Origin: a virus
IMG/VR virus record: IMGVR_UViG_3300047160_019164
Location: 28,464 to 92,463 of that record
Strand: one strand, 5' to 3'
DNA: 64,000 nt
Shown here: piece after piece, positions 4,701 through 39,081 of the stretch
Position numbering within the stretch: the stretch's first letter is position 1
Layout: each line of letters starts with the position of its first letter
Notes under the pieces: generated by a model
Databases searched by the model: none
Told to the model about the DNA's origin: nothing
What the model saw: the letters and a program-made list of their open reading frames with translations, nothing else
Program-made: the position numbers and the translations under genes

Positions 4701-5561
4701 GAGCGGTTGGAGAAGTTCAAGGCTACAGCCGAGAAACGCAACAAGGAGTGGAACGACGAAGCTGTGCTCGACGCCATCGACACCATCATGGCGGAGTACG
4801 AGCGTGCGGATGGCTACAAGGCGCGCAAGAAGAACGACGGCACACGCGTCGCTCATCCGCCGCACGTGCAGGTCGCTCTCATTCTGAAGGAACGCGGCGA
4901 AGAGGTGCATGCCGGTTCGAAGATCGGCTACGTGGTGGTGGACGGGTCGAAGTCGCCGATGAAGGTGATTCCCGCCAGTGACTTCACCGGCGTGGAGGCA
5001 GATCGCTGGTACCTGTGGGAGAACCTCGTGTGGCCACCGACGGAGCGTCTACTCGTCGCGGCGTTCCCCGACCACGAGTGGAAGTCGTGGGGCAAGGTGC
5101 GGCCCAAGAAGCCGCGATTGCCACGCGGCAAGAAGACGGCGCAGCTCGCATCCCCTGAAGTCAAGCCTCCCACCGCACGGCGCCGTGCGGTGAAGACTCC
5201 TGCGCTCGTTGCTGGCGGCTCCGTGGCGGTGCCGAAGCAAGCACCACCGCCAGCGGCTCCGGCCAAGGCCGAACCGGCTTCTTGGATGCCGCAGGTCGTC
5301 TCCCGCACCGCACGGCGCCGTGCGGTGGACCAGCCACCCCTCGTAGCCCCAAAGGAAGAAGGGACGGGCATGGAGTGGCTCCTACCCGTGGGCCGTGGGA
5401 CGAATCTCGACGAGGTGACGAAGGCGCTCAAGGCAGCACCGGGGCGCACACCCGTGTTCTTGGAAGTGGCGCTCCAAGGTGCACGCCTCCGCGTCGACTT
5501 GCGGATCAAGGTGAAGCCGTCGAAGGAGCTTTGGTCGTTCGTCACTTCATTGCTCGTCTGA
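1719..5561 (+). CDS. polB: Family B DNA polymerase with an intein and a DnaE-CTD-like C-terminal extension
   Basis: Exo motifs DLETD, WNGDRFDF and Y[intein]CEQD; Pol motifs DFARLYPSII, KIAANSFFG, YADTDS, KKRYA. Confidence 0.95.
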   Translation: MNQENYVNAYVDGGEIVLLKRVDGKLVEKRTPAEYVTYYEQSKVPSELVRALKTSENVLSMVQEKQWLRVHWKRPYRKSNKSDWEFDPRRFMAQDESSPFNERGIVSYEADVHPVLRHFVDCGVGIAKPKRCYIDLETDSRVSFARKEEMRILCYTIVDEDGGVVDSACLQEDTDASEAKLLTRMWDLLHKYDQVCAWNGDRFDFPVMFARSQGREVNVDVNRWLWLDHLMVFKRMNVTASESGDEKTSMRLQDVATAVLKEGKDKFDGSKTWQAWARGDGSCRKEACPGCGEKHEHSARECMRRYCLTPDHKVLGEDLRWRPLGECKAGDVILGFEENGPKGYGRQYRRAIVKSVERAIAPLYEVELASGKKFRVTPDHKWLVARVRKDTGCVNQMEWRETVDLLFDGRSIRSGGKRITNAGSSAAIKLFDVWEEDETKEAGWLAGMLDGEGSLSVKKNKGQRSAGGFTIQVGQVLGPTADRLHALIREKSVVEPKVCYEAPRGPISRKSLKKIIVRGAMHEKLKFLGTVRPERLIPKVDFDRLGRVEARNQFDPVVRVTPIPDGEIVMMETSTKTFVADGYPMHNCEQDTKLLAKIEKKTGYLELFFSLCQACGIFPDSPSTNPTHQVDGFMLRLGKERHTHFRTRKFGEEVEAFEGAFVMIPEYKGIVRNVHVGDFARLYPSIIITWNMSPETKVGVYDHSTKLVTRVDGKKESMREEWARAPRTNVVFDTTAQGILPTALLEMIRLRAYWNDRKASLTPGTEEWHDADRRSTAYKIAANSFFGVAGSPFSRYYDKQVGESITQAGVYLLKATIAEGLTFKPPVRTGYADTDSMFADRVTKAEFEAFVKHCNAELYPRITKAHGCKAYDIKFAYEKQFDRLVMTGKKRYAARYAHYKGKLAAKDSKPEIKGLEFKRGDTAKLARQLQEEAIRMLLGNWEEPFTAPTEVVDDYHKLIAKFQREVLEEKLPTELCVISKNITKKLPPSQREVEERLEKFKATAEKRNKEWNDEAVLDAIDTIMAEYERADGYKARKKNDGTRVAHPPHVQVALILKERGEEVHAGSKIGYVVVDGSKSPMKVIPASDFTGVEADRWYLWENLVWPPTERLLVAAFPDHEWKSWGKVRPKKPRLPRGKKTAQLASPEVKPPTARRRAVKTPALVAGGSVAVPKQAPPPAAPAKAEPASWMPQVVSRTARRRAVDQPPLVAPKEEGTGMEWLLPVGRGTNLDEVTKALKAAPGRTPVFLEVALQGARLRVDLRIKVKPSKELWSFVTSLLV
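2637..3479 (+). mobile_element. Intein (281 aa) with a LAGLIDADG-type homing endonuclease motif, inserted in PolB ExoIII
   Basis: Starts CLTPDHKV; block B 'FRVTPDHKWL'; 'WLAGMLDGEGSL'; ends 'FVADGYPMHN' followed by Cys+1. Confidence 0.93.
5171..5192. repeat. Palindrome copy 1 (in polB)
   Basis: CACCGCACGGCGCCGTGCGGTG; encodes TARRRAV. Confidence 0.95.
5306..5327. repeat. Palindrome copy 2 (in polB)
   Basis: Same 22-bp core; encodes TARRRAV. Confidence 0.95.
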
Positions 5562-11174: not shown

Positions 11175-12412
11175 AATTCATCGTCGCTTCCGACTTCCAC
11201 TTCGACGCAGTGACGGCGGGCGTTCGACGCTTCGAAGAACTGGAACGCGCCGCCGTCGCGGTGGTCAAGCACGCCATCGAAGCGAAGGTCGATGCGTTTC
11301 TCTTTCTCGGTGACCTGTGCGACCCGGACACCGGGAGCGCGGTGTTCCGATGCGTGGAGCTGGCGCAACGGATGGCAGTCAAGCTGGCGCAGGAACGCAT
11401 CACGTCGTTCTGGATGGCAGGGAACCACGACGTGATCGAGGACGGCACAGGGCACACCACACTCACGCCGATGCGCAGCATCGAGAAGTGGGGCGCGAAA
11501 CGGCTCTTCCCTGAACCCGGCTCCATCCTAGTCGTCGAGCGGTGGGAGCACTTCATCATCGACACCGGGCGCGACAAGAAGGACCACACTCCACCCATCA
11601 CGTTCGCGTTCTTGCCGTACACGGCGACGTCACACCACTACAGCCCGAAGGACGTGATGCCGACGCAGGCATTCCACAACGCGTGGAGAGCGCAAGCCCC
11701 GGTCGTCTTTGCCGGTCACCTATCCATCCCCGGCATCGTGCCTGGTGAAGAGACGCACGAGATGGGTCGTGGACGCGACATGACGTTCCCCTACGACGAG
11801 ATCATCGAACGGCGTCGCGAGTACCCGACGCTGATGCTGAACGGGCACTACCATCGTCAGCAGCACTTCCGAAAGCTCAAGGATAGTCGCGGCATCCACA
11901 TCCCCGGTTCGATGGCGCGACTCACCTTTGGCGAGGAGTACCACGCACCCGGCTACTTGTTCGTCGAGACGCGTGGTCACAAGTTCGATGTCTACAACAA
12001 CTCTTTCGGCAACAAGCATACGCCCGACACGAAGCCGGCGACGTTGCTCACCATCGGTGAGAGTGACCCGATCTGGAAGCAAGTGGCAGAAGGTGAAGCT
12101 ATCTACTTCGGCGACGACTTGCGCGCGACCATCGTGCGGCTCCGCCCCCCGCTCGAGGCCGAAGAGATTCATGTGGAGTTAGTCGTACACGCACTTCGTA
12201 CGCTCGGTGTCGCTGCCGTGAAGGTGCTTCCACGGCCTTCCAAGGCTGTGTTGCCGGCGTTCCGAACCGAGTTGGACGAAGAAGGCGAGCCCCTCCAAGT
12301 CGCGAAGCGTCCATACGAAGTCGTGAGCGAACTGGTCGAGAGCGCGAACACACGCGACCGTGATGCTCTCAAGCAACTGACCAGCGAAGTGATGGCGAAA
12401 GCGGGTCTCTGA
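11171..12412 (+). CDS. sbcD: SbcD/Mre11-like metallophosphoesterase nuclease subunit
   Basis: SDFH, GDLCD, GNHD, GHL, GHYH, PGS motifs; adjacent to an SbcC-like gene. Confidence 0.88.
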   Translation: MKFIVASDFHFDAVTAGVRRFEELERAAVAVVKHAIEAKVDAFLFLGDLCDPDTGSAVFRCVELAQRMAVKLAQERITSFWMAGNHDVIEDGTGHTTLTPMRSIEKWGAKRLFPEPGSILVVERWEHFIIDTGRDKKDHTPPITFAFLPYTATSHHYSPKDVMPTQAFHNAWRAQAPVVFAGHLSIPGIVPGEETHEMGRGRDMTFPYDEIIERRREYPTLMLNGHYHRQQHFRKLKDSRGIHIPGSMARLTFGEEYHAPGYLFVETRGHKFDVYNNSFGNKHTPDTKPATLLTIGESDPIWKQVAEGEAIYFGDDLRATIVRLRPPLEAEEIHVELVVHALRTLGVAAVKVLPRPSKAVLPAFRTELDEEGEPLQVAKRPYEVVSELVESANTRDRDALKQLTSEVMAKAGL

Positions 12413-14361
12413 TGCGCTACTTGGCAGAGCTGCACCTCAAGAACTGGAAGTGCTTTCGTGGCGAGCACGTGCTCAAGTTCGAGCCGAAGGCGTACGCAGT
12501 ACTTGCCACGATGGACCGCGACGTCGAGCGTTCCAATTGGCTCGGGAAGTCGTCGCTCCTCGAGGCCATTGCCTTCGCGATGTACGGATGGCACACCGAG
12601 GAAGGTGGCGACAACGCGCTCATCACACGCGGCGAGAAGGTGGCTGAAGCGAAGCTCGTCTTCGATGATGGAAGCCAGGTCATGCGCACCAAGCACGCCG
12701 GCAAACCGAAGCGGCTTTTCTACCACCACGGTGGGAAGGACTTGATGGGTGACGAAGCACAGTCGCTCATTCTCGATAACGTTGGGTTGAGTGAGCAGGA
12801 CTTCTTCGCTACGTGCTTTTTCGAACAGAAGAAGATGTCGCGCCTGGTGACGATGGAAGCCAGCGAACGGATGGCTGTGGTGGTGGAGTGGCTACGGCTC
12901 GGAGTACTGGAGCAGTGCGAAGCGCTCACGCTGCATCACGTGCGTATGTTGCTCGAGAAGGAGCACAAGATGCGCGCACAATTGGAATCGCAGCTTGCGG
13001 TTCAGAAGCACGCGCTTGGGACGTTCCCCAACATCGAAGTCCTCGTCAACGAGTTGGAGTCGGTGCGCAAGGAAGTGGCGGAGCACGCCGACAAGGTCGC
13101 GGAGCTGGAAGACCAGGAGAAGCGCTCGAACCGCGCCGTGTCGCTTCGTAAGGAGTGCGAGCGGTGGGGTAGCCTCAAGGCCGACGGGTTGGCGCTCAGC
13201 GAGGAGATCAAGTCGACGGATGAGTTGGCGCTACGGCGCGCCCTGGAAGAAGCGCGCGATGCGTTGCGCGAGGCTGACAGCAAGCAAGGGCTTCTCGAAC
13301 GAGAGGTGTCGCTGAAGCGCACCGTCGCTGTCGGGAAGTTTGATGGCGCCTGTCCTGTCGTGAAGTTCGCTTGCCCCGCACGCGACGATATCAACGACAT
13401 GACGGAGCAGAGCCGCAAAGAGCTGAAGAAGAGCGACGAGCGTCTGCGCGAGTTGCTCGTCGCGCGCGATGCCGTGCGCAAGGGTGTGAACCGCGCCGAA
13501 GCCGACTACCAAGAGCTGGCGCGCAAGCGCGATCGACTTGATTACATCCGCAAGGAGATGGAGCGCATCTTGCCGATGCGCGCCGAGTGGAAGAAGTGCA
13601 AGGACGACGAGCAGGACGGGGAGAAGCTGTCCACCGCACGGCGCCGTGCGGTGGAGAAGTCGATCGAGTTGGCGTCGGCCAAGAAGGTGCTCGCTAGTTC
13701 GGTGGACAGCTACAAGGCCACGCTTCAACCCATCGAGGAGTTGACCGCGGAGCTGAAGGACATCACCAACAAGCTCGCCACCGCGCGCGAAGCGATGATC
13801 ATCTTCGGCAAGAACGGAGCGCAACGTCGCATCGCGGAGACGGCGCTCGAGGACATTCAACAGAGCGCCAACACCATCCTCGCCGACTGCGGTATCCCGC
13901 TCAGCATCGTCATCCGTTGGGCGCGTGAAGGGTCGGGCCTTGCCAACACGTGCAGCGATTGCGGGTACCCGTTTCCCAAGTCGGCCAAGGACCGCAAGTG
14001 CACGCATTGCGGCGCCGACCGTGGTCCCAACATCATCAACAAGCTGGACATCGTGATGACGGACCGAAGTGGTGCTGCGGAAGACCTCGTGGGCGGTGCG
14101 TTGCAGCTCGCGGCGTCGACATGGCTGCGCACCGACCGAAACAGTGGATGGAGTGCAGCTTTCATCGATGAGCCGTTCGGTGCGCTTGATCGCGCCAACT
14201 TGCGCGCGTTCAGCTCGCACCTCCACGGCATGCTCAACTCGCGCTACGGGTTCGCGCAGTCGTTCGTCATCGCGCATCATGCGTCTGTCCTCGACGCACT
14301 CCCCGGACGCATCCTCATCACGTCGGACGGTAAGTACTCGAGCGTGAAGGTGGTGTCGTGA
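12412..14361 (+). CDS. sbcC: SbcC/Rad50-like ABC ATPase
   Basis: LKNWKCF; Walker A NWLGKSS; Q-loop; coiled coil; Walker B FIDEPFGALD; H-loop. Confidence 0.88.
   Translation: MRYLAELHLKNWKCFRGEHVLKFEPKAYAVLATMDRDVERSNWLGKSSLLEAIAFAMYGWHTEEGGDNALITRGEKVAEAKLVFDDGSQVMRTKHAGKPKRLFYHHGGKDLMGDEAQSLILDNVGLSEQDFFATCFFEQKKMSRLVTMEASERMAVVVEWLRLGVLEQCEALTLHHVRMLLEKEHKMRAQLESQLAVQKHALGTFPNIEVLVNELESVRKEVAEHADKVAELEDQEKRSNRAVSLRKECERWGSLKADGLALSEEIKSTDELALRRALEEARDALREADSKQGLLEREVSLKRTVAVGKFDGACPVVKFACPARDDINDMTEQSRKELKKSDERLRELLVARDAVRKGVNRAEADYQELARKRDRLDYIRKEMERILPMRAEWKKCKDDEQDGEKLSTARRRAVEKSIELASAKKVLASSVDSYKATLQPIEELTAELKDITNKLATAREAMIIFGKNGAQRRIAETALEDIQQSANTILADCGIPLSIVIRWAREGSGLANTCSDCGYPFPKSAKDRKCTHCGADRGPNIINKLDIVMTDRSGAAEDLVGGALQLAASTWLRTDRNSGWSAAFIDEPFGALDRANLRAFSSHLHGMLNSRYGFAQSFVIAHHASVLDALPGRILITSDGKYSSVKVVS
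13630..13655. repeat. Palindrome copy 4 (in the sbcC coiled coil)
   Basis: Encodes STARRRAVE. Confidence 0.95.
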
Positions 14362-14540
14362 GCGAGCACCGCTTCCTCGACGGCGAAGAGACGCTCGACG
14401 AGGCGGAGCTGATGCGTGTGTTCCTGAACAAGCAACGCACCCGCGAAGGCGTGTGCGACGGCTGCAACAAGCAAACGAAGGTCTACGTCGAAACCAACCT
14501 CTGCATCACGTGCCTTGCCGGCTACTCGGAGATCCCATGA
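14358..14540 (+). CDS. Small Zn-finger protein
   Basis: CDGC..CITC; translationally coupled on both sides. Confidence 0.55.
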   Translation: MSEHRFLDGEETLDEAELMRVFLNKQRTREGVCDGCNKQTKVYVETNLCITCLAGYSEIP

Positions 14541-15121
14541 GCGACGACACCAAGGACCGCGGCGACTGGAGCCAGACCTATACCGACCTGATGTTCTACC
14601 CGAAGGACCCGCGCCCGGAGGACATCGACATTCGCGACATCGCTCATGGGCTTGCGTACTCGTCGCGGTTCAACGGGCAGACCAATCGCTACTACTCCAT
14701 CGCGGAGCACTGCGTCCACGTCAGTTACGAGTGCGACGAAGCTGATGCGCTCGAAGGGCTGATGCACGATGCCGCAGAAGCCTACGTCGGCGACGTGGTC
14801 ACCTCGGTGAAGCGCCACCTTCCAGGCTTCTACGAGATCGAGGATGCCATCGAGCAGGTCATTGCGGCGAAGTACAAGTTGCGTCGTCCGTGGCCGGAGA
14901 GTGTGAAGCGTGCGGACATCGCGGTGCTCATCGCCGAGAAGCGCGATCTTTTCGCCAAGAATCTCGTGTGGAAGAAGCACGCGAACACCAAGCCGATGTC
15001 GCGCACGGTGAATTGCTGGAACGATTCGACCGCCTACGACCACTTCTTGAAGCGCTACGCCCAACTCAAAGGGCTCGATCTCGTCGGCGTGATGGTGCAC
15101 GGGGACGCGGTGCTCCTGTGA
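14537..15121 (+). CDS. HD-domain 5'-deoxynucleotidase (YfbR/YfdR-like)
   Basis: 'DIAHGLA..RFNGQ..YSIAEH..LMHDAAEAYVGDV..K', 'VKRAD'. Confidence 0.88.
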   Translation: MSDDTKDRGDWSQTYTDLMFYPKDPRPEDIDIRDIAHGLAYSSRFNGQTNRYYSIAEHCVHVSYECDEADALEGLMHDAAEAYVGDVVTSVKRHLPGFYEIEDAIEQVIAAKYKLRRPWPESVKRADIAVLIAEKRDLFAKNLVWKKHANTKPMSRTVNCWNDSTAYDHFLKRYAQLKGLDLVGVMVHGDAVLL

Positions 15122-15651
15122 GCAAAGTGAAGGGGAACGGCGGCGAGCGCGAGGTGGCAGCGCTCATCCAACCATGGTGGTCGAAGGTCGAACCGGGTGC
15201 CACCTTCGTTCGTACGCCGCTCTCTGGTGGATGGGGCAAGACGCGCGAAGTGCGCGCCGGCTTCAAAGCAAGCGGCGACCTGATGACCACCGCGACGCAG
15301 TTTCCCTTCACCATCGAAGTGAAGCGTCGCGAAAAGTGGACGTTGGAGCGTCTTCTCGCTGGCAAGGCGAGCCCCGTGTGGCCGTGGTGGAAGCAAGCGC
15401 AGACGCAAGCCGACGAGATGGGGCTTACTCCACTGCTCTGGATTCGAAAGAATCGGCAGCCGTGGCGCATCATCATGCCGCACTCGTTCGCCTTGCTGAA
15501 GGGGCTCATCACAGCGCGCTCGCGAGTGCATGTGTGGACCTGCTCACCGCATCTCGTCGCGGATCTGTTCGGTGAGCAGGTGCCCGCGATGATCGCGGCG
15601 GAGGACTTCCTCAAGTGCGACCCGAAGCGCTTCCTACTGACCAAGTGGTGA
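15118..15651 (+). CDS. Holliday junction resolvase (Hjc-like PD-(D/E)XK)
   Basis: 'SKVKGNGGEREVA', 'GDL', 'IEVKRRE'. Confidence 0.8.
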   Translation: MSKVKGNGGEREVAALIQPWWSKVEPGATFVRTPLSGGWGKTREVRAGFKASGDLMTTATQFPFTIEVKRREKWTLERLLAGKASPVWPWWKQAQTQADEMGLTPLLWIRKNRQPWRIIMPHSFALLKGLITARSRVHVWTCSPHLVADLFGEQVPAMIAAEDFLKCDPKRFLLTKW

Positions 15652-15677: not shown

Positions 15678-16397
15678 GTGAAGAAGAAACTCGAGACTAC
15701 GAAGACCCCCGAGGCGGCAGCCGTCTATCTCGACCCCAAGAAGCTCGTCCCCAATCCCAAGAACCCACGTGTCAACGACGCGGTGGTTGACGACATCGTC
15801 AAGTCAATCGACAAGTTCGGGTTCACAGTGCCCATCGTCGTGCGCAAAGCGAACATGATGGTGGCGGCAGGGCATACGCGGTTGAAGGCGGCACTCAAGA
15901 TGGGGCTCAAGGAAGTCCCGGTTCGCATCCTCGACATCACGCAACGTCAGCTCGAAGCACTCACCATCGCCGACAACAAGCTCGGCGAGAAGGCCACGTG
16001 GGACGAGACGCTCTTGAAGGAGCAGCTCCAAGGGCTTCTCAAGGACGATTTCGACTTGAACATGCTCGGATTCGACGGGACCGAGTTGGCAAGCCTTCTC
16101 GCCGAGTCGCCTTCGGTGCTTGGTGGCGACTCCATTCCCGCCGAGGCAGCCAACGGCAAAGGCATGACGGACCCCGGCGCGCCGCAGGGCGATCCGTCGC
16201 ACGTGCGCATGGTGCAACTCTTCCTCGACGAGACGACGCACCCGGTGTTCCTCGAGCGCTGCAAGGTGCTCGGAAAGAAGTGGGGTCTCGACAACGTCAC
16301 GAAGGTCGTGATGAAGGCGCTCGAGGAGATCGCCAAGGAACCGAACAAGAAGGGCGAGAAGACCGATGTTCACGGTGCAGCTTCGAACGCAGGTTGA
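15678..16397 (+). CDS. ParB/Srx N-terminal domain protein with a putative C-terminal ribbon-helix-helix
   Basis: 'NPKNPR', 'SIDKFGFTVPIVV', 'AGHTRLKAA', 'IADNKL'. Confidence 0.85.
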   Translation: MKKKLETTKTPEAAAVYLDPKKLVPNPKNPRVNDAVVDDIVKSIDKFGFTVPIVVRKANMMVAAGHTRLKAALKMGLKEVPVRILDITQRQLEALTIADNKLGEKATWDETLLKEQLQGLLKDDFDLNMLGFDGTELASLLAESPSVLGGDSIPAEAANGKGMTDPGAPQGDPSHVRMVQLFLDETTHPVFLERCKVLGKKWGLDNVTKVVMKALEEIAKEPNKKGEKTDVHGAASNAG

Positions 16398-17265
16398 CGA
16401 GAAGCTCATCGCGTCACGCCATGGTGGCGATGTCACCGAAGAGGACATCGCGTTCAAGCCCACGAGCGACATCGCCGTCTACAAGTCCAACGGCCAGCCG
16501 CTCCTCTTCGTCTTCAAGCGCGCGGTGTCGCAGAAGGAGATCGAGCTGGCGCTCCCTGGCTTGAACGCCATGCGGATCACGAGCCCGAGCTTCAAGAGCA
16601 ATCGCAAGACGTATGGTGGTGGGCCGGCATACCGCAAGAAGGAAGACGGCACCGTCTCCAACACGACGTACGGCAAGAGCATCAGCAGTGCCATTGCTGG
16701 CTACTTCGATCGGTACCCACGTTTCCCGTTCTGTCGGCAGACGGCGTTCACCGCGAAGGAGGTCGAGAAGTGGCGCGACCTCCAACCGATGATCCACACG
16801 TGCGCGAAGCTGTTCAAGGAGCACCTCCCCGAGCGCTACGAGAACCAGGACAAGGTCGCGCGCAAGGTGCATCCCGACTTCCAGATCGCAGGGACGCCGT
16901 TCAGCACGCTCACGGTCAATCACAACGCGGTGGCCAAGCTTCACCAGGACAAGGGTGACCTTCCTGACGGTTTCGGTGTGATGACGGTCATCAAAGAGGG
17001 CTCGTACGACGGCTTCTCGTTGGTGTTCCCGCGCTTCCGTGTAGGAGCTGAGCTGGAAACTGGCGACGTGATCCTGTTCGACCCGCACGAGTTTCACGCC
17101 AACGTGCCGCCGCGCAATTGCTCGGACGATTACCACCGCATCAGCGTGGTGATGTACTTCAGGAAGAAGATGATCGAATGCGGCAGTGCTGCGGACGAGA
17201 TGAGGCGCGCACAGAAGGCGCGCGGCTCGCTCGACATCGTTGCGAACGAAGGAGCGACCGAATGA
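16366..17265 (+). CDS. TET/JBP-family 2OG-Fe(II) dioxygenase (5-methylpyrimidine oxidase)
   Basis: 'SAIAGYFDR..FCRQT', 'TPFSTLTVN', HxD 'HQDKGD', distal H 'HEFHAN', 'RISVVMYFR'. Confidence 0.85.
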   Translation: MFTVQLRTQVDEKLIASRHGGDVTEEDIAFKPTSDIAVYKSNGQPLLFVFKRAVSQKEIELALPGLNAMRITSPSFKSNRKTYGGGPAYRKKEDGTVSNTTYGKSISSAIAGYFDRYPRFPFCRQTAFTAKEVEKWRDLQPMIHTCAKLFKEHLPERYENQDKVARKVHPDFQIAGTPFSTLTVNHNAVAKLHQDKGDLPDGFGVMTVIKEGSYDGFSLVFPRFRVGAELETGDVILFDPHEFHANVPPRNCSDDYHRISVVMYFRKKMIECGSAADEMRRAQKARGSLDIVANEGATE

Positions 17266-18356
17266 ACGTCGCGGTATGGCGCTACGGGTTGCCGTTGCAG
17301 GTGGAGGCACAGAGCACGGTCGGCGGTGGCAAGATTGCTGGCGAGCTACTCAAGACGCTCAAGAAGCAAGGTCACAACGTCACGGTCGTGGGTCCGGTGT
17401 CGAAGGGTGTCGAGCAGTGGCTCGCGGACGCTGGCATCGCTCACAAGCGCACCAACGACTTGAGCACGATGGATGCTGCGGTGGTGCTCACGGGTCCGTT
17501 CAATGTGATGTACGGAGACGGTGTCTTCGACACCTATCGCCGACTCGCGACATTGAACGGCAAGGCCATCTATGCGCAGTGGGACGTCGCGTTGCCGTTC
17601 CACTTCGCCGCGGACCGAAGCACCAAGTTCGCAGCTGACTGTCACGTGCGCACTCCACACCTCTTGAAGAACAAGGAGTGGTTCCTCTTCACGCAACTCG
17701 AAGAGGAACACGTGCGTGCTAGCAAGGCCGCGAGCACGATGTATGCGACGGCACCTTTCAAGCACGTGCGCTGCCTTTTCGAACTGGTCGAGTTGGAGAA
17801 GGAGTTGCTCAAACCGGTGAAGAACCCGGTGCCGGCGATCGCTTACTTTGGTAGCGACCGCCCCGGTCGCATGCGTGAGCTACTTCGTTGGTTCGGAGCA
17901 CCCGGTTCGCCGCCCGTGCACCTCTATGGGCAGTGGAGCGAGAAGTCGCTCGCCGAGTTGATGAAGAACCAAGGCTTCGAACCCAACATCGAGTACCGCG
18001 GCAAGATCCCCGAGGGCCGGGTGACCGAAGTGTTGAATCAGTACGTGATGACCTTCTACATGGCGGACCCTGCGTACGTGAAGACCGACTTCATCGCGCA
18101 GCGGTTCTTCGAGAACGCCATCGCCGGCGTCGCGACCTACTACAGCGACAAGATTCAGCCGTCGGTGCGGAAGACCGTGCCGAGTGGGTTGGTGCTCGAG
18201 GACCCGAAGCAGCTCAAGGAAGCGTTCCAACACGTGGTGTCGATGCCGTTCAAGAAGCGCCTTGGGCTCGTGCACCAGCACCAGGAAGCGATCCTGAGCT
18301 TCGCGAAGAGCCATCCGCACAGCATGCGCAACGCGTTCGAGCAGGTGCTCTCGTGA
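17262..18356 (+). CDS. GT-B glycosyltransferase resembling T4 DNA beta-glucosyltransferase
   Basis: 'YFGSDRPGR..LYG..YRGKIP..V..D..Y..FIAQRFFE' parallels T4 BGT 'YGGSFRSGQR..FTGKIP..GDKNY..FITLRVWE'. Confidence 0.75.
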   Translation: MNVAVWRYGLPLQVEAQSTVGGGKIAGELLKTLKKQGHNVTVVGPVSKGVEQWLADAGIAHKRTNDLSTMDAAVVLTGPFNVMYGDGVFDTYRRLATLNGKAIYAQWDVALPFHFAADRSTKFAADCHVRTPHLLKNKEWFLFTQLEEEHVRASKAASTMYATAPFKHVRCLFELVELEKELLKPVKNPVPAIAYFGSDRPGRMRELLRWFGAPGSPPVHLYGQWSEKSLAELMKNQGFEPNIEYRGKIPEGRVTEVLNQYVMTFYMADPAYVKTDFIAQRFFENAIAGVATYYSDKIQPSVRKTVPSGLVLEDPKQLKEAFQHVVSMPFKKRLGLVHQHQEAILSFAKSHPHSMRNAFEQVLS

Positions 18357-19042
18357 CGATGGCGAGTTGCACGGTCGTCATCCCGGCGCACAACGAAGAG
18401 GACACCATTGGTGGACTCGTGGAGTGCGCGCTCGTGCACGCGGACCGCGTCATCGTGGCGAACGACTCGAGCACCGATCGAACGGAACAAGTGGCGGAGG
18501 AAGCGGGTGCAATCGTCGCTCTGGTTCCGCGTGAGCGTCGTGGCTTGGTGGGCGTCTACTCGTTCGGGCTCCGGGTCGCCGTTGCTCTCCACCGCACGGC
18601 GCCGTGCGGTGGACGTGGGGCGTACGTCTGCGAGATGGACGCGGGCGGCAGCCACGACCCGCACGAGCTACCCAAGTTCTGGAAGGCTCTCGACGAAGGC
18701 GCCGACATCGCCGCGGGCTGTCGCTTTGCGTACGGGGGCGAGTACCTCGGGTCGTGGCAGCGGAAGAGCCTGAGCTACTTCGGCACCAAGCTCACCAACA
18801 TCGTGCACGGCACCAAGTGGTGCGACGCGACGAGTGGCTTCGTGGCGTACAGGTCATCGTCGCTCGATGCGCTCTTGCAGGTCCCCTACAAGTCGACGGG
18901 TCACTACTACCAGACGGAGATGCGTCTGCGCGCGCAGGCCATGGGCATGAAGACGACGGAAGTGCCCATCACGTACAGGAACAGCGGCTCGTCGCTCAAT
19001 TGGCGTAGCATCCGTGAGGCATTGTCCTTGGTGATGCGATAG
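18353..19042 (+). CDS. GT2 (GT-A) glycosyltransferase, DPM-synthase-like
   Basis: 'VVIPAHNEE', 'NDSSTDRT', 'MDAGGSHDP', 'DATSGF', 'EVPITY'. Confidence 0.88.
   Translation: MTMASCTVVIPAHNEEDTIGGLVECALVHADRVIVANDSSTDRTEQVAEEAGAIVALVPRERRGLVGVYSFGLRVAVALHRTAPCGGRGAYVCEMDAGGSHDPHELPKFWKALDEGADIAAGCRFAYGGEYLGSWQRKSLSYFGTKLTNIVHGTKWCDATSGFVAYRSSSLDALLQVPYKSTGHYYQTEMRLRAQAMGMKTTEVPITYRNSGSSLNWRSIREALSLVMR
18588..18613. repeat. Palindrome copy 5 (in GT2)
   Basis: Encodes HRTAPCGG. Confidence 0.95.
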
Positions 19043-19053
19043 GAGAAGTCACA

Positions 19054-19695
19054 ATGGCGCGAAAGATGGCAGCACACATTGGAGCGACGCCGGTCGTCGT
19101 TCATGACACGACGCTCGTCGACGTCGAAAAGCTCAACCCCGCGCCGTACAACCCGCGCAAGATCAAACCGGCCATGCTCTCGGCGTTGAAACAGAGCATC
19201 AAGGAACAGGGGTTCATTCACCCCATCGTCGTGCAGAAGAAGGGTATGGTCATTATCGCTGGCCACCAACGAGTGAAGGCGTTGCGTGAGCTGTGCAGCG
19301 AAACGGGGCAGCCGCTCCCCAAGATTCCCGCCATCATCCGCGACATCGGCGATCGAGTCGCCAAGAAGCTCAACATCACGCTGAACCGCGTCGGTGGTGA
19401 ATTCGATGCGGGGCTCCTCGGTGACTTGTTGCGTGACCTGCAAGACGATGTGCGCCTGACGACCGACGAACTGACTGGCATGGGCATCTCGGCCGACGAG
19501 CTGGACGGGCTTCTCAAGCTCGACGATCCGCCGCCCGAGAACGAAGAGATTCCAACCTTCGGACGCTCGGTCACCATGTCGCTTTCGTTCAGCGACACCA
19601 AGATGCGTGACCGCGTGAAGAAGAAGCTCGAGGAGCGTTCGCGTGTGGAAGGGAAGAAGAGCGGCGAGATCGTCGACAGCCTGATGCGGCGATGA
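19054..19695 (+). CDS. ParB/Srx N-terminal domain protein with a putative C-terminal ribbon-helix-helix
   Basis: 'PAPYNPR', 'SIKEQGFIHPIVV', 'IAGHQRVKA', 'NITLNRVGGEFD'. Confidence 0.85.
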   Translation: MARKMAAHIGATPVVVHDTTLVDVEKLNPAPYNPRKIKPAMLSALKQSIKEQGFIHPIVVQKKGMVIIAGHQRVKALRELCSETGQPLPKIPAIIRDIGDRVAKKLNITLNRVGGEFDAGLLGDLLRDLQDDVRLTTDELTGMGISADELDGLLKLDDPPPENEEIPTFGRSVTMSLSFSDTKMRDRVKKKLEERSRVEGKKSGEIVDSLMRR

Positions 19696-20183
19696 AGCCC
19701 AAAGAGGCAACTCCGCTGGTGCGCTTCTTCCGTCGAATGGCGGAGAAGTTGTTCGGTACGTGGAAGGAAGGCATTGAGCCACCTGACCGGCTTGGCGATA
19801 TGGTCATTACCTTCGCCAACATGCACCCACACGCTACTCGGCAGGATTGGGTTGTCTTCGCGACGTTTCACGCACGCGAAGCGTACCGAAGTGGTTACTT
19901 GCGCGGCGTCGAGTACGCCGAGCGCGAAGACGATGAACCGGGCCTCGACCCCGATGTCTTGATGGACGCGATGAATGGCCCTTCGTGGCGCGGACGGCCC
20001 GTGGGACCGAATCTCGAGCCGCCCGCCGAAGACCTGCACGATTGGGAGTGGTATCCGACCGAAGGTCCCACGCTGGAAGGCGACGTGGCTGCACGCGTGC
20101 GTGAGTACGAAGACGAGAACCACATTGCGTGGGAGCAGCTCACCAAGATGGAGAGTGCCGATCAGGAGCGTTCGAAGCGCTGA
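19692..20183 (+). CDS. Hypothetical protein
   Basis: ORF with a 4-bp overlap to the upstream gene. Confidence 0.6.
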   Translation: MKPKEATPLVRFFRRMAEKLFGTWKEGIEPPDRLGDMVITFANMHPHATRQDWVVFATFHAREAYRSGYLRGVEYAEREDDEPGLDPDVLMDAMNGPSWRGRPVGPNLEPPAEDLHDWEWYPTEGPTLEGDVAARVREYEDENHIAWEQLTKMESADQERSKR

Positions 20184-21648: not shown

Positions 21649-22293
21649 ATGAGCGGGAAGTTCGTGGTGATAGAGGGTATTGATGGGTCTGGGAAGACGA
21701 GCTTGGTGAAGCTGATGGCGGCGGAGCTGCGGAAGCGTGGGTTCACCGTGCACGAGACGTACGAGCCCACGCACGGTGAGATCGGCGCGTTGGCGCGCAA
21801 GGCGTTCAGTGCGGAGTCGAAACACATCGACGACCCGCTTGCGTGGGCGAAGCAGGAGATGCTCCTCGCGGCCGATCGCATGCACCATCTGTTTGGTGAA
21901 GTGAACCCGGCGCTCGAGACGCACGACTACGTCATCTGCGATCGCTACGTCGGCAGCGGGTACGCGTACGGCATGGCGTCGCGTCCGAATTCCGTCTCCA
22001 CGTTGAGCGCGCATGGGTTCCTCTGCGGCATGTATGCGTTCGCGTGGAAGCCGGATTACTGCATCCTCGTCGACGTGCCGATCGAAGTGGCAGTGGAGCG
22101 CATGGCCAAGCGCACGGACAAGACGCGCTACGACGTCGACGTGGAGTTGCTCAAGCGGGTGCGTAGCATCTACAACAGCGAAGCCGCAGAGCATCGGCAC
22201 TGGTACACCATCCGTTCCGGTGCCATGACGGCCGAGCAGACATGTCTCGCAGCGCTCGATCGCACGGGCATCGGCCTGCGCAGAACCTCGTAA
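21649..22293 (+). CDS. tmk: Thymidylate kinase
   Basis: 'FVVIEGIDGSGKTS', 'EPT', 'AADR..H', 'CDRY..S..AY'. Confidence 0.92.
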   Translation: MSGKFVVIEGIDGSGKTSLVKLMAAELRKRGFTVHETYEPTHGEIGALARKAFSAESKHIDDPLAWAKQEMLLAADRMHHLFGEVNPALETHDYVICDRYVGSGYAYGMASRPNSVSTLSAHGFLCGMYAFAWKPDYCILVDVPIEVAVERMAKRTDKTRYDVDVELLKRVRSIYNSEAAEHRHWYTIRSGAMTAEQTCLAALDRTGIGLRRTS

Positions 22294-22400
22294 CCACCGC
22301 AAGCGAAAACGTCGGAGTGACGCGAGCGCGGTCCCTATAAGGTGGGGACTGTCTGTGGCAGGTCGGGCGCGAAACGGCGCTAGCTAGCGGCCTGCCGCAC

Positions 22401-22442
22401 CGAAAAAGTCCACCGCACGGCGCCGTGCGGTGGACTTTTTCG
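22401..22442. terminator. Bidirectional terminator-like 42-bp perfect palindrome containing a copy of the 24-bp repeat
   Basis: CGAAAAAGT-CCACCGCACGGCGCCGTGCGGTGG-ACTTTTTCG. Confidence 0.7.
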
Positions 22443-22494
22443 TATGAGAATCCCTCACGAAAAAGGAAATCGTCAGGGCTCGGACGATTTCATG

Positions 22495-22523
22495 TTGCAC
22501 AGGGATGCAATGCGGCTTATTGT
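22495..22523 (+). promoter_or_regulatory. Sigma70-like promoter of the early region
   Basis: TTGCAC-17 nt-TATTGT with an A-rich upstream tract; AGGAGG RBS and ATG22566 downstream. Confidence 0.6.
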
Positions 22524-22565
22524 TCTTCTCACGGTGAACACGACGGTGACGCAAGGAGGTGTGTG

Positions 22566-22790
22566 ATGGACATGCGACGTAGCCAAGCGGCAAAGGTGCT
22601 GGATAGTGTGCGCACGATGTTGGCCCAACGTGAGAGCCCGGAGAAGATCGAGAGGTATCTGTCGCTCCAGTTTGGCATCGAAGCCCTCGTCAAGTGCAGT
22701 GGCGAAGCGCACTCCAACGCGCACATCGACAATTGCGGTTGCTGTGCGCCGCGGTGGGGTTGGGTGGGCGATACCGTCAACATCAAGTAG
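22566..22790 (+). CDS. Small Cys-rich early protein
   Basis: AGGAGG RBS; HIDNCGCC. Confidence 0.6.
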   Translation: MDMRRSQAAKVLDSVRTMLAQRESPEKIERYLSLQFGIEALVKCSGEAHSNAHIDNCGCCAPRWGWVGDTVNIK

Positions 22791-22841
22791 GTCGAAACGG
22801 GCACCAGCCCGTCCGCACGTGATGCGTGCGCTGACGAGACC
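22790..22841 (+). ncRNA. Type II hammerhead ribozyme 1
   Basis: GGUC-GAAA-CGGGC(acca)GCCCG-UC^-CGCACG(ugaug)CGUGCG-CUGACGA-GACC; complete core and three stems. Confidence 0.9.
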
Positions 22842-22855
22842 AGGAGCAAGTAGCC

Positions 22856-23092
22856 ATGGACACCAGCAAGATCGCGATCGGGGAAGTCGTGAAGGCCACC
22901 GCCACCACGTATACGGGCAAGATGTACGGCGGCGGGCTCATCGCCGGGCAGCTCTACAAGGTGGTTGATATGAGTCACCTACGCTGTACGTTCGGCGGTC
23001 ACACCACGTTGTTCGTGCGCTCCGTCGACCGCAGCATCGACCGCGGCATCATTCCGGTGCGGAACGCGCACCTGGTGTTGGAGGTGGCGTGA
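22856..23092 (+). CDS. Hypothetical early protein
   Basis: AGGAG RBS directly after hammerhead 1. Confidence 0.65.
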   Translation: MDTSKIAIGEVVKATATTYTGKMYGGGLIAGQLYKVVDMSHLRCTFGGHTTLFVRSVDRSIDRGIIPVRNAHLVLEVA

Positions 23093-23373
23093 TGATCAAC
23101 CGTTATACGGTCGAGAACGCGGTGGTCGTTGCCAGCCTGCTCACGGAGCAGGGCTTCTTCGCGCATGTCTACTCGGACCAGGAGTCGGTCGTTTGCACCG
23201 ATGCGCCAGTAGCTAAGGTGCAAACGACCGAGCGCAAGGCGTTCGAGCCGATCGAAGTGGCGTACTACACCGGGACGTGGAAGCGGCAGGTGTGCAAGAC
23301 GCCCGCATCGTTCCGCAAGCTGGTGGACCGTTGCATCGACGAGGGCTGGGAAACGCGTACGCGCAAGGCGTGA
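23089..23373 (+). CDS. Hypothetical early protein
   Basis: GGAGG RBS; coupled to the upstream gene. Confidence 0.6.
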   Translation: MMINRYTVENAVVVASLLTEQGFFAHVYSDQESVVCTDAPVAKVQTTERKAFEPIEVAYYTGTWKRQVCKTPASFRKLVDRCIDEGWETRTRKA

Positions 23374-23377
23374 TGTA

Positions 23378-23439
23378 GGTCGAAACCACCGCACGGCGCC
23401 GTGCGGTGGTCCGGGCGTAAGGCGCCCGCTGACGAGACC
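23378..23439 (+). ncRNA. Type II hammerhead ribozyme 2 (stem III formed by the 24-bp palindrome)
   Basis: GGUC-GAAA-[CCACCGCACGGCGCCGUGCGGUGG]-UC^-CGGGCG(uaagg)CGCCCG-CUGACGA-GACC. Confidence 0.88.
23385..23410. repeat. Palindrome copy 7 (hammerhead 2 stem III); copy 6 is within 22401-22442
   Basis: ACCACCGCACGGCGCCGTGCGGTGGT. Confidence 0.95.
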
Positions 23440-23456
23440 ACGAGGAGCAAGCCGAC

Positions 23457-23828
23457 ATGAGGACCACGAGCTTCCACGGCCACGCGCTCAACCTCCCGGC
23501 CGGCCGACTCGGCCGCACTCAGCGCTACGCGCTGGAGCACATCTACGAAGAGGGACAGGACTCGACCGATCGTGCCCTCCACCTCCACGGTCGGGCAGCG
23601 CGCTACGCTAGCCGCTACGCCACCGCGCTCGCGAACATCGTCGACGCGAACCCGCACCTCTTCGCCGGCGGTCCGTTCGGACCGCGCGGCGGCCGCGGGT
23701 ACAAGTGGATTTGGCACGGACCGATCCAGGCACCCCGGTGCACCGCGCACGAGGACTGCCGCGCGTGCGTCGACGTCGCGCTCGCGTGCGATCAAGAAGC
23801 CACGCGGCATAACCCAAACAAGCGCTGA
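23457..23828 (+). CDS. Hypothetical early protein
   Basis: GAGGAG RBS directly after hammerhead 2. Confidence 0.6.
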   Translation: MRTTSFHGHALNLPAGRLGRTQRYALEHIYEEGQDSTDRALHLHGRAARYASRYATALANIVDANPHLFAGGPFGPRGGRGYKWIWHGPIQAPRCTAHEDCRACVDVALACDQEATRHNPNKR

Positions 23829-23856
23829 GGCGCAGCAACCCAAAGGAGCACAGAAG

Positions 23857-24813
23857 ATGCCCACCAAGAAGCCGTTCGATCGTGACAAGTGGCTCGAGGA
23901 GAAGCGCGCCAAGGTGCAGGACGCGAAGGAGATGCTGGAGACTGGGCTCACTGCACTGCGCACCAGCGACGAGTGGAAAGCGTGCATGACTGCCATCGCG
24001 AAGAACGCGCGCCTGCGTTACAGCGTTACCCGCTACAGTTTCGGAAACCAGATGATGCTCGCCTGTCAGTGCGCTGGTGCGAACCGACCGCAGCCCACGA
24101 GCGTCGCTACCTTCAAGGCGTGGCAGCGCGTCGGTCGCAGCGTGAAGAAGGGCGAGAAGGGGATGTTCATCCTCACGCCGAAGCCCTGGAAGCGCGAGGA
24201 GAAGCAAAGCGACGGCACCTCCAAGGAGCTGCGCGGCATGTCGTTCGGCGTGGCGCACGTGTTCGACATCGCGCAGACCGAAGGTGACGAGCTGCCTGTA
24301 CCGCCGCGCGTGACGGTGGACATCGAAGATGCCGCCACCTTCAGCGCGGACGTGGAGACGCTGCGCGAAGTGGCGCTCGCCATCGACGGCGAACCGGTGA
24401 GCGATATCGAGATCCGTGCCAACCAACCGGGCGACCCGACCAACGCGCAAGGCTGGTACGTCATCTCCACCAAGGCGATCGTCGTGGTGGAGCACCGCAG
24501 CCGCGCTCACATGTTCAAGACGCTCGTCCACGAGGTGGCGCACGCGTTGCTCCATCCCAAGGGCGACCACCACTCTACGCCCGAGCGCGAGGTCGAAGCT
24601 GAATCGACGGCGTTCATCGTCTGCCAGGTGCTCGGTCTCAGTACCGACGCCTTTAGCTTCCCGTACGTCGAGTCGTGGGCGCAGCGCGCGAGCTGCACGT
24701 CGAACGACATGATCGCCAAGTGCGGCGACCGCATCACCAAGGCGTCGCATACCATCTTGGATGCGCTCCTCGGCAAGCAAGTCGAAGAGCCCAACGAGGA
24801 AGAGGCTGCGTAA
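23857..24813 (+). CDS. ardC: ArdC-like antirestriction protein (ssDNA-binding N-domain plus zincin-like HExxH domain)
   Basis: 'YSFGNQ', 'VATFKAWQRVGRSVKKGEKG', 'VFDIAQTEG', 'LVHEVAH', 'EVEAESTA'. Confidence 0.85.
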   Translation: MPTKKPFDRDKWLEEKRAKVQDAKEMLETGLTALRTSDEWKACMTAIAKNARLRYSVTRYSFGNQMMLACQCAGANRPQPTSVATFKAWQRVGRSVKKGEKGMFILTPKPWKREEKQSDGTSKELRGMSFGVAHVFDIAQTEGDELPVPPRVTVDIEDAATFSADVETLREVALAIDGEPVSDIEIRANQPGDPTNAQGWYVISTKAIVVVEHRSRAHMFKTLVHEVAHALLHPKGDHHSTPEREVEAESTAFIVCQVLGLSTDAFSFPYVESWAQRASCTSNDMIAKCGDRITKASHTILDALLGKQVEEPNEEEAA

Positions 24814-28613: not shown

Positions 28614-29465
28614 ATGATGACCGAGACGAAACGTCGTGAGCTCGCGAAGCGGGTGGAGAACGATGTACGCGCGTCCTTCTCGATGAAGATCGGCTCCCTC
28701 TTCTCAGGCATCGGCGGCTTTGAGCTTGGCCTTGAGCGTGCCGGTCTCGGGAAGGTCGTCTACCAGGTCGAGATCGATCCGTTCCGTCGCGAGATCCTCG
28801 CGCGTCACTGGCCGAACGTGCGGAGGTACGTCGATGTCGAAAAGGTCGAGAAGGATGTCGGAAGCGAAGGATACGGGATCGGCTCCCTCCCCCGCGTTGA
28901 CGTCGTCTGTGGAGGTTTCCCTTGCCAGGACGTTTCGTCCGCGAACGTCCGTTCCCGGAAGCGTCTCGACGGACGAAAGAGTGGGCTCTGGAGAGAGTTT
29001 TTCCGCGTCATCCTCCGTCTCTGCGACCCGAACGTCCACGGAGGCTTTCGCCGGCCGATCTTCATCTTCGTCGAGAATGTCGGCTCGACGTGGCGTGACT
29101 GGTTGCCCGTCGTGCGGGGCGACCTTGGACGACTCGGGTACACCAGCCTGCCTCTACGCCTGTCCCCCGCGACTCTCGGCGCACCTCACCACCGAGATCG
29201 AGTCTTCGTCGTCGCGTGCTCGTTGGCCGACGCCGACGCGGAAAGCGAATTGCTTCGCACCGTCGATGCGGAAGTGGCCCGCATACAGGCGGATGCAGGA
29301 CGACTTGAGAGTCACTGGAGGAAGCCCTTCGCCGGCCCTGTTCGAGTGGATGATGGGGTTTCCCGACGGATGGACCGCGTAGCGGCCCTCGGCGACTCCG
29401 TCGTCCCTCAGGTGGCCGAGATGCTAGGGCGCGCCGTTGTGACTTCTTTCGCGATGTTACGATGA
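28614..29465 (+). CDS. C5-cytosine DNA methyltransferase, large (alpha) polypeptide; alternative start at 28683
   Basis: Motif I FSGIGG, IV GGFPCQD, VI ENV, VIII HHRDRVFVV, X LGDSVVPQVA. Confidence 0.9.
   Translation: MMTETKRRELAKRVENDVRASFSMKIGSLFSGIGGFELGLERAGLGKVVYQVEIDPFRREILARHWPNVRRYVDVEKVEKDVGSEGYGIGSLPRVDVVCGGFPCQDVSSANVRSRKRLDGRKSGLWREFFRVILRLCDPNVHGGFRRPIFIFVENVGSTWRDWLPVVRGDLGRLGYTSLPLRLSPATLGAPHHRDRVFVVACSLADADAESELLRTVDAEVARIQADAGRLESHWRKPFAGPVRVDDGVSRRMDRVAALGDSVVPQVAEMLGRAVVTSFAMLR
28720..29382 (+). CDS. Putative nested small (beta) subunit of the C5-MTase in an alternative frame; true start possibly ATG29077
   Basis: Ends 'WPTPT...PSPALFEWMMGFPDGWT', a motif IX-like segment absent from the main frame. 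Confidence 0.65.
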   Translation: MSLALSVPVSGRSSTRSRSIRSVARSSRVTGRTCGGTSMSKRSRRMSEAKDTGSAPSPALTSSVEVSLARTFRPRTSVPGSVSTDERVGSGESFSASSSVSATRTSTEAFAGRSSSSSRMSARRGVTGCPSCGATLDDSGTPACLYACPPRLSAHLTTEIESSSSRARWPTPTRKANCFAPSMRKWPAYRRMQDDLRVTGGSPSPALFEWMMGFPDGWTA

Positions 29466-31039: not shown

Positions 31040-31040
31040 A

Positions 31041-33870: not shown

Positions 33871-33894
33871 CCACCGCACGGCGCCGTGCGGTGG
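33871..33894. repeat. Palindrome copy 10 (3 nt upstream of the tRNA)
   Basis: Perfect 24-mer. Confidence 0.95.
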
Positions 33895-33897
33895 CAT

Positions 33898-33971
33898 TGC
33901 GCGGTAGAGCAACGGCAGCTCGCTAGGGGTTCATACCCTGGAAGTAGGAGGTTCGATTCCTCCCCGCGCGA
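33898..33971 (+). tRNA. Met-like tRNA with an atypical anticodon arm (CAT or TCA register)
   Basis: Acceptor TGCGCGG/CCGCGCG; D-arm GAGC/GCTC; T-arm GGAGG-TTCGATT-CCTCC; anticodon arm CTAGGG-GTTCATA-CCCTGG. Confidence 0.8.
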
Positions 33972-39053: not shown

Positions 39054-39081
39054 CTCCACCGCACGGCGCCGTGCGGTGGAG
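39054..39081. repeat. Palindrome copy 12 (4 nt upstream of tRNA-Thr)
   Basis: Perfect 28-mer. Confidence 0.95.

Follow-up and report, generated by a model that had tools for sequence, protein, structure and literature searches.

Five adjoining genes in a 64,000-nucleotide stretch of DNA from an uncultured phage, labelled G000 here, encode two ParB-like proteins, a TET/JBP dioxygenase and two glycosyltransferases. The whole stretch (the window) comprises bases 28464-92463 of the 92,463-bp IMG/VR virus record IMGVR_UViG_3300047160_019164. Our results indicate that these genes probably form a post-replicative DNA hypermodification cassette of the ParB-dependent 5mYOX kind, that is, a further case of a published type in which the pairing of ParB with TET is not new. 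It had been proposed, in what we call the original prediction, that the ParB proteins load at 24-bp palindromes dispersed through the phage genome and so aim glycosylation at phage DNA. This proposal is not supported, as the distribution of the palindromes among phages, the missing covariation between ParB proteins and palindromes, and published biochemistry all stand against it. The palindromes are better regarded as a separate, lineage-wide feature that is read by some other factor.

Gene content and coupling of the cassette

The genes named in the original prediction (ParB-N, TET/JBP, a GT-B enzyme like T4 beta-glucosyltransferase (BGT), GT2 and ParB-N) were all confirmed with Pfam, PHROGs and Foldseek searches of AlphaFold2 (AF2) models, and are arranged as follows, together with the gene that comes after them.

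15678-16397, + strand: ParB1 (Pfam ParB_N, E 3.7e-9; phrog_620, 5.6e-44)
16366-17265, + strand: TET/JBP (5mYOX) Fe(II)/2-oxoglutarate dioxygenase, 299 residues (Pfam Tet_JBP PF12851, E 6.2e-27)
17262-18356, + strand: GT-B glycosyltransferase, 364 residues (AF2 model closest to T4 BGT)
18359-19042, + strand: GT2 glycosyltransferase of GT-A fold, DPM1/GtrB-like, 227 residues (PF00535, E 6.9e-22; phrog_841)
19054-19695, + strand: ParB2 (Pfam ParB_N, E 8.5e-12)
19692-20183, + strand: p163, a lineage-core protein without a Pfam or PHROG match

The genes are as tightly coupled as had been claimed, with overlapping or near-abutting ends throughout. In order, the junctions within the cassette are overlaps of 32 nt and 4 nt, an overlap of 7 nt or a gap of 2 nt according to whether GT2 starts at an alternative TTG (18350) or at the ATG (18359), and a gap of 11 nt; the start of p163 overlaps the stop of ParB2 by 4 nt. 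The GTG start of ParB1 (15678) is preceded by GGAGG, 7 nt upstream. The motifs GHTRLKA in ParB1 and GHQRVKA in ParB2 were both found.

The lineage of G000 was defined by its capsid: a scan with a capsid profile yielded 159 relatives, and 21 large lineage genomes were assembled. The relatives are labelled G001-G022 (loci L088-L114 and L195-L273); G019 is not among the assembled genomes and G005 was set aside as unrelated. G001-G004 have about 40 syntenic genes in common with G000, and their capsid proteins are 53-64% identical to that of G000. Scans with the single TET or terminase protein returned no close relatives, whereas alignment-based scans did find them. A megablast search with the cassette gave no match among isolate phages.

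ParB-dependent phage 5mYOX enzymes were defined by O'Toole et al. (PNAS 2026, PMC13229309). The commonest neighbors of 5mYOX genes are glycosyltransferases (31% of contigs) and ParBs, and both domains of the ParB are required to activate the cognate TET/JBP dioxygenase on double-stranded DNA (PMC13229309). The notion that ParB proteins steer modification machinery to DNA sites is older still, being an idea of Iyer/Aravind 2013 that is cited in Burke et al. 2021 (PMC8256090). Hence, the claim that ParB-like proteins belong with modification enzymes holds, but is already published. The closest published counterparts are the ParB-dependent phage thymine dioxygenases of clade C1, for example 5mYOX176/ParB176. 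As in our cassette, a ParB without a helix-turn-helix adjoins a TET/JBP enzyme with a C-terminal tail, to which the tail seen here may correspond, and no C5-methyltransferase is adjacent. Our cassette adds to the clade C1 arrangement a second ParB with a different C-terminus and the pair of a T4-BGT-like GT-B and a GT2.

TET keeps the Fe(II)/2-oxoglutarate ligands (HxD...H...R), and its residues H193, D195, H241, H244, R258 and C272 are invariant in an alignment of 26 homologues, in which a conserved tail of 27 residues follows the invariant Cys272; an extra C-terminal tail is described only for ParB-dependent enzymes (PMC13229309). We found 76 TET homologues, and relatives of the enzyme are encoded on 542 viral stretches. 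Among 80 IMG/VR loci with such relatives, TET is immediately preceded, usually with an overlap, by a ParB1-type gene in nearly every case in which the locus is not truncated at the gene. The 364-residue GT-B has no Pfam match of its own, although PF13524 is matched by 12 of 22 homologues and PF09198 by one. Its AF2 model (pLDDT 95.1, pTM 0.91) returned T4 BGT entries as the top six Foldseek matches (E 5e-15 to 2e-12, TM 0.67-0.81), followed by T4 AGT; the best match in the Protein Data Bank (PDB) was 1qkj (E 5e-15, TM 0.77/0.79). The model thus has the two-Rossmann-domain GT-B fold of T4 BGT (1qkj and 1j39, TM 0.77-0.81), but sequence identity is only 15-16% and the predicted likeness is one of fold. 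For GT2, 74 homologues were found, those aligned being 51-61% identical, and a segment with an acidic DxD-type motif (E-M-D-A-G-G-S-H-D-P) shows little or no variation among 13 orthologues. Homologues of TET, GT-B and GT2 sit on contigs that agree in lengths, which suggests that the three recur together as a trio.

The two ParB proteins

Modelled with AF2 from 40 orthologues (pLDDT 84), ParB1 has a nucleotide-binding domain (residues 15-141) that is joined by a disordered linker (146-175) to a C-terminal domain (176-222). The N-terminal domain resembles the CTP-binding domains of Noc, ParB and KorB (Foldseek E 1e-6 to 1e-5), and VIA-align places it close to pNOB8 ParB-N (Z 11.9) and KorB (Z 11.3). 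Residues 176-222 form an extended segment and two helices (187-202 and 207-220) at a pLDDT of 94-98. With VIA-align, residues 174-228 align to about 35 ribbon-helix-helix proteins with Z scores of 3.3-4.7, which are modest, as expected for a small domain. The best of these matches is NikR (Z 4.7, root-mean-square deviation 2.0 over 45 residues); others are Arc, ParD2, MazE (MazE9), AmrZ and the centromere-binding protein pCXC100 ParB. A profile of 32 C-terminal domains matches ParG (1p94) weakly (E 0.11) but over the whole ribbon-helix-helix domain, while Pfam ribbon-helix-helix families gave no match to either ParB C-terminus at E up to 10. Structure prediction, which had been suggested as a check, therefore supports a ribbon-helix-helix-like C-terminus for ParB1 at the level of fold, and on this modelling the domain is ribbon-helix-helix-like. 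In the 5mYOX-associated ParBs of O'Toole et al., a linker connects the nucleotide-binding domain to a C-terminal domain, which is called a dimerization domain, and no obvious DNA-binding domain is seen (PMC13229309). The ribbon-helix-helix-like fold gives a concrete hypothesis for how such helpers might touch DNA. The C-terminal motif V(R/K)MVQLFL...TDNxTDTV is kept in 60 of 60 ParB1 orthologues examined.

ParB2 ends differently. Its C-terminus is of a second type (type 2) with a regular strand-helix-helix sequence pattern, SVTxSLxF...RD.VK..L...KK.G. The ParB2 profile matches chromosomal ParB, Spo0J and Noc, with the alignment to chromosomal ParBs confined to the N-terminal part. In place of a helix-turn-helix domain, which the ParB1 model lacks, short helices (127-141) and the disordered linker lie between the nucleotide-binding and C-terminal domains. 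Box II reads GHTR in ParB1 and GHQR in ParB2, not GERR, so that the catalytic Glu is absent; only the Gly and the last Arg of this box are invariant in 40 orthologues. A search of the genome for ParA gave no match to PF13614 and, for PF01656, only a 13.5-bit P-loop match within a 509-residue protein. The predicted complex of TET and ParB1 scored 0.01, which counts neither for nor against binding.

Proposed action and substrate of the cassette

By analogy with the published system, ParB1 is a putative activator of the adjacent TET/JBP enzyme. We propose that ParB1 would activate this enzyme, encoded directly downstream, on double-stranded DNA, with its ribbon-helix-helix-like C-terminal domain serving as a dimerization domain; that ParB activates the enzyme is taken from PMC13229309. 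The TET/JBP enzyme would then oxidize a 5-methylpyrimidine in short sequence contexts, the T4-BGT-like GT-B would put a first sugar on the hydroxymethyl group, and GT2 would add or extend a second sugar. The product may be a base-J-like or a glycosyl-hydroxymethylcytosine-like base, which probably shields the DNA from host nucleases. Gene identities, folds and synteny were determined here; we infer which base is the substrate, in what order the sugars are transferred and that the product is protective. The combination of a T4-BGT-like enzyme with a GT2 is so far uncharacterized, and the cassette is a reasonable place to look for a new DNA glycan.

The substrate is most likely thymine, which would be converted to 5-hydroxymethyluracil; 5-methylcytosine (5mC) made by a distant C5-methyltransferase of the phage is less likely. 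Two genes in the window bear on this choice.

28614-29465, + strand: C5-cytosine DNA methyltransferase (PF00145, 3.2e-26; phrog_363, 1e-52)
30867-31862, + strand: ThyX, flavin-dependent thymidylate synthase (PF02511, 2.2e-36; conserved in G001-G003)

Thymine is favored by the ParB-linked type of the enzyme, by the lack of an adjacent C5-methyltransferase, by the presence of ThyX and a thymidylate kinase, and by the TET of G003. ThyX points to synthesis of dTMP by the phage, whose DNA would thus start with thymine. In G003, the ParB and TET genes are followed by an amino-acid:DNA transferase (ADDT), which is thymine-hypermodification machinery. The tested enzymes of clade C1 are thymine dioxygenases and are without an adjacent C5-methyltransferase (PMC13229309).

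It is also possible, if unlikely, that the C5-methyltransferase makes 5mC, which TET converts to 5-hydroxymethylcytosine (5hmC) and the BGT-like enzyme glucosylates, as in the clusters of Burke et al. 2021. Those clusters (PMC8256090; bioRxiv 10.1101/2023.12.21.572611) have in common with our cassette the post-replicative oxidation by TET and a subsequent transfer by GT-A and/or T4-BGT-like GT-B enzymes, in their case yielding glycosylated 5hmC, and ParB genes were noted in those contigs too. Both characterized phage thymine dioxygenases also oxidize 5mC in vitro (PMC13229309). In those clusters, as in the published 5mC clades, however, the methyltransferase adjoins TET, and the oxidases of the clusters are specific for GpC, whereas here TET is ParB-linked and 9.3 kb separate its gene from the nearest C5-methyltransferase, which is downstream. 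The ParB-linked enzymes that have been assayed are thymine dioxygenases (PMC13229309), and the orthologous TET of G003 is followed by ADDT; a phage that encodes ThyX and a thymidylate kinase further argues for thymine.

Several observations nevertheless weigh against a ParB-dependent thymine-modifying cassette. The C5-methyltransferase has no homologue in G001-G005, and 5mC remains a live substrate. The closest fold of the GT-B is that of T4 BGT. T4 makes 5hmC before replication, and it is on 5hmC that T4 BGT acts. The box II sequences make CTPase chemistry doubtful for both ParB proteins, and the published ParB mutants leave the role of the nucleotide open (PMC13229309). Finally, the keeping of two ParB paralogues in one phage is not accounted for. 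A parallel with thymine as the substrate is provided by kinetoplastid base J (JBP1/2 and JGT), where TET/JBP hydroxylation of thymine in DNA is followed by glucosylation; that system differs in that JBP has its own J-DNA-binding domain and needs no ParB, and in that JGT is of GT-A type.

Palindromes and cassette are separable

The palindrome of G000, CCACCGCACGGCGCCGTGCGGTGG, is present in 18 copies in the window, as compared to 0.01 expected, and in 26 copies in the 92-kb genome. Its spacing is more even than random (coefficient of variation (CV) 0.52, P 1e-4). Both the counts and the spacing statistics confirm that dispersed, regularly spaced 24-bp palindromes exist as originally described.

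In the loading model, ParB1 and/or ParB2 bind the palindromes through ribbon-helix-helix C-termini, load as CTP clamps, spread and recruit TET and the glycosyltransferases such that only phage DNA is modified. There is some evidence for such a scheme: the palindromes occur far above chance and at even intervals, the modelled C-terminus of ParB1 resembles a DNA-binding fold, nearly all lineage genomes have a ParB-like gene and nearly all have a dispersed repeat, and KorB with its dispersed OB operators, as cited in PMC13229309, offers a precedent. The cassette resembles the ParB-parS and KorB-OB clamps in its ParB N-terminal fold and in the presence of dispersed palindromes, like KorB operators, in the same genome. 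Unlike those clamps, the cassette ParBs lack a helix-turn-helix (in the ParB1 model), GERR, ParA and any covariation with the palindrome.

The distribution of the palindromes argues against this model. Among 30 TET loci of at least 15 kb, a dispersed palindrome was detected in only four, all of G000's own lineage, and ParB adjoins TET in 25 of the 26 remaining long loci, which have no dispersed palindrome. Conversely, Tet_JBP is absent from 16 of 17 large relatives found with the capsid profile and from 15 of the 21 lineage genomes (TET being present in 6); 14 of those 15 still bear a dispersed repeat. As these TET-less genomes carry their own repeats, the palindromes do not need the cassette. 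Co-occurrence of cassette and palindromes across related phages, the lack of which the original prediction had named beforehand as refuting, was checked and is absent.

The type-1 strand VRMVQLF is shared by phages whose palindromes have nothing in common and by palindrome-free phages. In the type-2 strand SVTLSLxF, G000 and G021 agree in the outward residues S, T, S and S despite unrelated palindromes. Residues of these strands thus do not change with the palindrome in either type, and the ParB beside p163 has differing C-termini across palindrome-bearing relatives. Published biochemistry points the same way: ParB176/5mYOX176 oxidizes about 35% of the thymines of Escherichia coli DNA, at NTG, and also modifies lambda DNA, with no phage site present (PMC13229309). 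It is from this paper that we take the point that a homologue acts without a phage site; the distribution across phages and the missing covariation are results of the present comparison. There is also no helix-turn-helix domain in the ParB1 model and no ParA. On all this evidence, it is very unlikely that the palindromes are loading sites of the cassette, and we give the full recruitment scheme hardly any credence.

Direct reading of the palindromes by the C-terminal domains of the ParBs is excluded by our tests, as is a dependence on TET. There is an outside chance that the core ParB and p163 together with the enzymes of the island (see below) act preferentially at or from the palindromes through an adaptor, thereby placing epigenetic-like marks on the boundaries of transcription units; such an arrangement might be the phage counterpart of base J, which is found at transcription boundaries in kinetoplastids. 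Separation of the two elements leaves the palindromes as an independent, lineage-wide puzzle.

A lineage-core ParB beside a variable modification island

ParB2 and p163 are a lineage-core pair and not specific to the cassette; they come after SbcCD and border an island of variable DNA-modification genes. The usual order of genes in the lineage is SbcD, SbcC, variable genes, ParB and p163. With a lineage-informed ParB profile, a ParB-like gene was detected in 20 of the 21 lineage genomes. The genome without one, G007, had been considered as an instance of palindromes without ParB and was discarded, since its contig stops at SbcC and the region between SbcC and the terminase is largely missing (about 6 kb as compared to 22-33 kb in relatives). 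Type-2 ParB orthologues were found in G006, G009, G010, G012, G014 and G021, and proteins of the ParB2 type are present in TET-less relatives too.

Homologues of p163 occur in 19 of the 21 lineage genomes and have a conserved motif, F.EGP.PP.RL...ATR.DW..FA...AYR.GY.RG.E..ER. Searches with p163 of Pfam, PHROGs and PDB profiles gave no match; against ESM Atlas structures, a low-confidence model gave a weak sigma-factor-like match (TM 0.45).

The contents of the island vary from phage to phage, and so does the C-terminus of the ParB adjoining p163: among palindrome-bearing relatives it is a ribbon-helix-helix-like segment in some, a zinc ribbon in others and a methyltransferase in others again. 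A C5-methyltransferase lies between SbcC and p163 in G006 and G011. In G014, a TET-associated glycosyltransferase (TAGT) and a sugar epimerase are located between two ParBs, with no Tet_JBP match. G015 has a GNAT/P-loop protein, while G013 and G016 encode ParB-methyltransferase fusions. Island genes in relatives are located as follows.

L101, 17307-18224: island gene
L246, 8441-9928: island gene
L237, 16191-17621: island gene
L256, 15126-16987: island gene
L262, 5626-6813: island gene

In G000, the island would be filled by ParB1, TET, GT-B and GT2. A ParB-like gene is thus fixed beside changing enzymes (TET, C5-methyltransferase, TAGT, ADDT and fused methyltransferases), and ParB helpers may assist enzymes of further classes beyond the dioxygenases with which they have been tested.

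Possible role of the palindromes

A dispersed repeat of its own, 20-24 bp in length and in 7-26 copies, is present in 20 of the 21 large lineage genomes, and its center is nearly always CG. The spacing has a CV of about 0.5 in most, with P values of 1e-4 to 0.015 in the five genomes tested. The sequence of the repeat changes from phage to phage (for example, ACGGATGATCGATCATCCGT, AGATAACACCGGTGTTATCT and ACCGCGCCGCGCGGCGCGGT), and the exact 22-mer of the G000 palindrome is absent from other IMG/VR contigs. G001-G003 have 24-bp palindromes (CCGTCGGTGATCGATCACCGACGG, GATTGGAAACCCGGGTTTCCAATC and GATTCGAAAAGCGCTTTTCGAATC, respectively), whereas the repeat of G004 is shorter and more variable (GGGAACCCGGGTTCCC); the repeats of these four relatives are present in 14-20 evenly spaced copies. 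G020 has only a direct-repeat motif. G022 was at one stage taken to be repeat-less, but this was overturned by the presence of a dispersed inverted repeat with an asymmetric center.

Rather than serving the modification cassette, the palindromes seem, on balance, to be docking sites or hairpins for a lineage-core factor, with punctuation of transcription units, RNA 3'-end or 5' untranslated region (UTR) structure and chromosome organization as proposed roles. The occurrence of an evenly spaced repeat in 20 of 21 relatives defined by capsid fits this reading, as does the location of the copies. About 20 of the 26 copies in G000 are intergenic, with 10 beginning 0-7 nt after a stop codon, and at least four extra complementary flanking bases are present in 5 of 20 perfect copies, as compared to 0.08 expected. 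Two of these five have A5/T5 flanks that lengthen them to 42 bp, and resemble bidirectional terminators (window 22401-22442 and genome 24964-25005, the latter outside the window). Two others are directly upstream of tRNA genes, and copies in G001-G003 lie beside elements that look like -10 sequences or ribosome-binding sites. A published parallel is found in Cluster O mycobacteriophages, whose genomes carry more than 30 invariant, unexplained 17-bp dyad repeats dispersed between and inside genes (Cresawn et al. 2015, PMC4351075). A Cluster O genome also encodes a protein with a ParB-like domain and glycosyltransferases (PMC4351075). The Cluster O repeats have 7-bp arms, a 3-bp spacer and one cluster-wide sequence, whereas those described here are spacer-less, 20-24 bp long and phage-specific.

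This reading is not without difficulties. No core family stands out as the reader: when 34 core families were compared, none was unusually similar between phages sharing a palindrome. A plain terminator needs no perfect sequence conservation, and some copies are inside genes. One of these is in the cassette itself.

18589-18612: palindrome copy inside GT2, encoding HRTAPCGG in a loop

This loop is an insertion of 5-8 residues that is lacking in 12 of 12 aligned orthologues, whereas the copy in the primase gene replaces orthologous residues with the length unchanged. Neither pure insertion nor pure in-place selection accounts for every copy. We had considered that all in-gene copies were 8-codon insertions, which is true for GT2 and false for primase, while SbcC could not be aligned closely enough for a decision. 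The possibility that the center of the palindrome is an otherwise-avoided restriction or modification site was also rejected, since the central hexamers occur at their Markov-expected frequency elsewhere in 19 genomes.

Other observations concern the surroundings of individual copies. Nearly identical sequence (GTATGAGAATCCCTCACGAAAAA...) follows both 42-bp copies, implying that a longer regulatory unit was duplicated about 26 kb apart. No hammerhead ribozyme was detected in window 22300-23700, including the candidate sites at 22790-23439, by Rfam covariance matching at E up to 1; the sub-threshold Rfam matches in this region are to generic hairpin families only and fall on the extended palindrome. 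Each of the two tRNA genes (33898-33971 and 39086-39158; Rfam 42.8 and 71.5 bits) is separated by only a few bases from the palindrome copy that precedes it (33871-33894 and 39056-39079, respectively). Many of the copies in G001 have TG(G/C)TAGC(C/G)T after them and, 7-12 nt further on, an ATG; this resembles an extended -10 element and a leaderless start. Copies in G003 are directly upstream of ribosome-binding sites and those in G002 are preceded by a G-rich run. Judging from these sequences, the repeats may border promoters or 5' UTRs in relatives.

The family-A DNA polymerase (1719-5561) is 1280 residues long and has a long C-terminal extension of poor conservation, its orthologues being about 400-500 residues shorter in three of the four compared (G001-G003). 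Two palindrome copies (5171 and 5306), 135 bp apart, are found in this extension and both are translated as TARRRAV.

Neighboring and accessory genes

Genes for an HD-domain protein (YfbR-like 5'-deoxynucleotidase family) and a phage PDDEXK_15 nuclease (14537-15651) are located immediately 5' of the cassette and have no homologues at the same position in G001-G004. Further upstream is SbcC, and accessory genes lie downstream, among them the C5-cytosine methyltransferase (28614-29465) and ThyX (30867-31862) listed above.

12412-14361, + strand: SbcC, upstream of the cassette
21649-22293: thymidylate kinase
23572-24813: ArdC-N/IrrE-like anti-restriction protein

The GC content is about 62% and all identified genes, which include those for the family-A DNA polymerase, a UvsX-like recombinase, SbcCD, the large terminase and the major capsid protein, are on the + strand.

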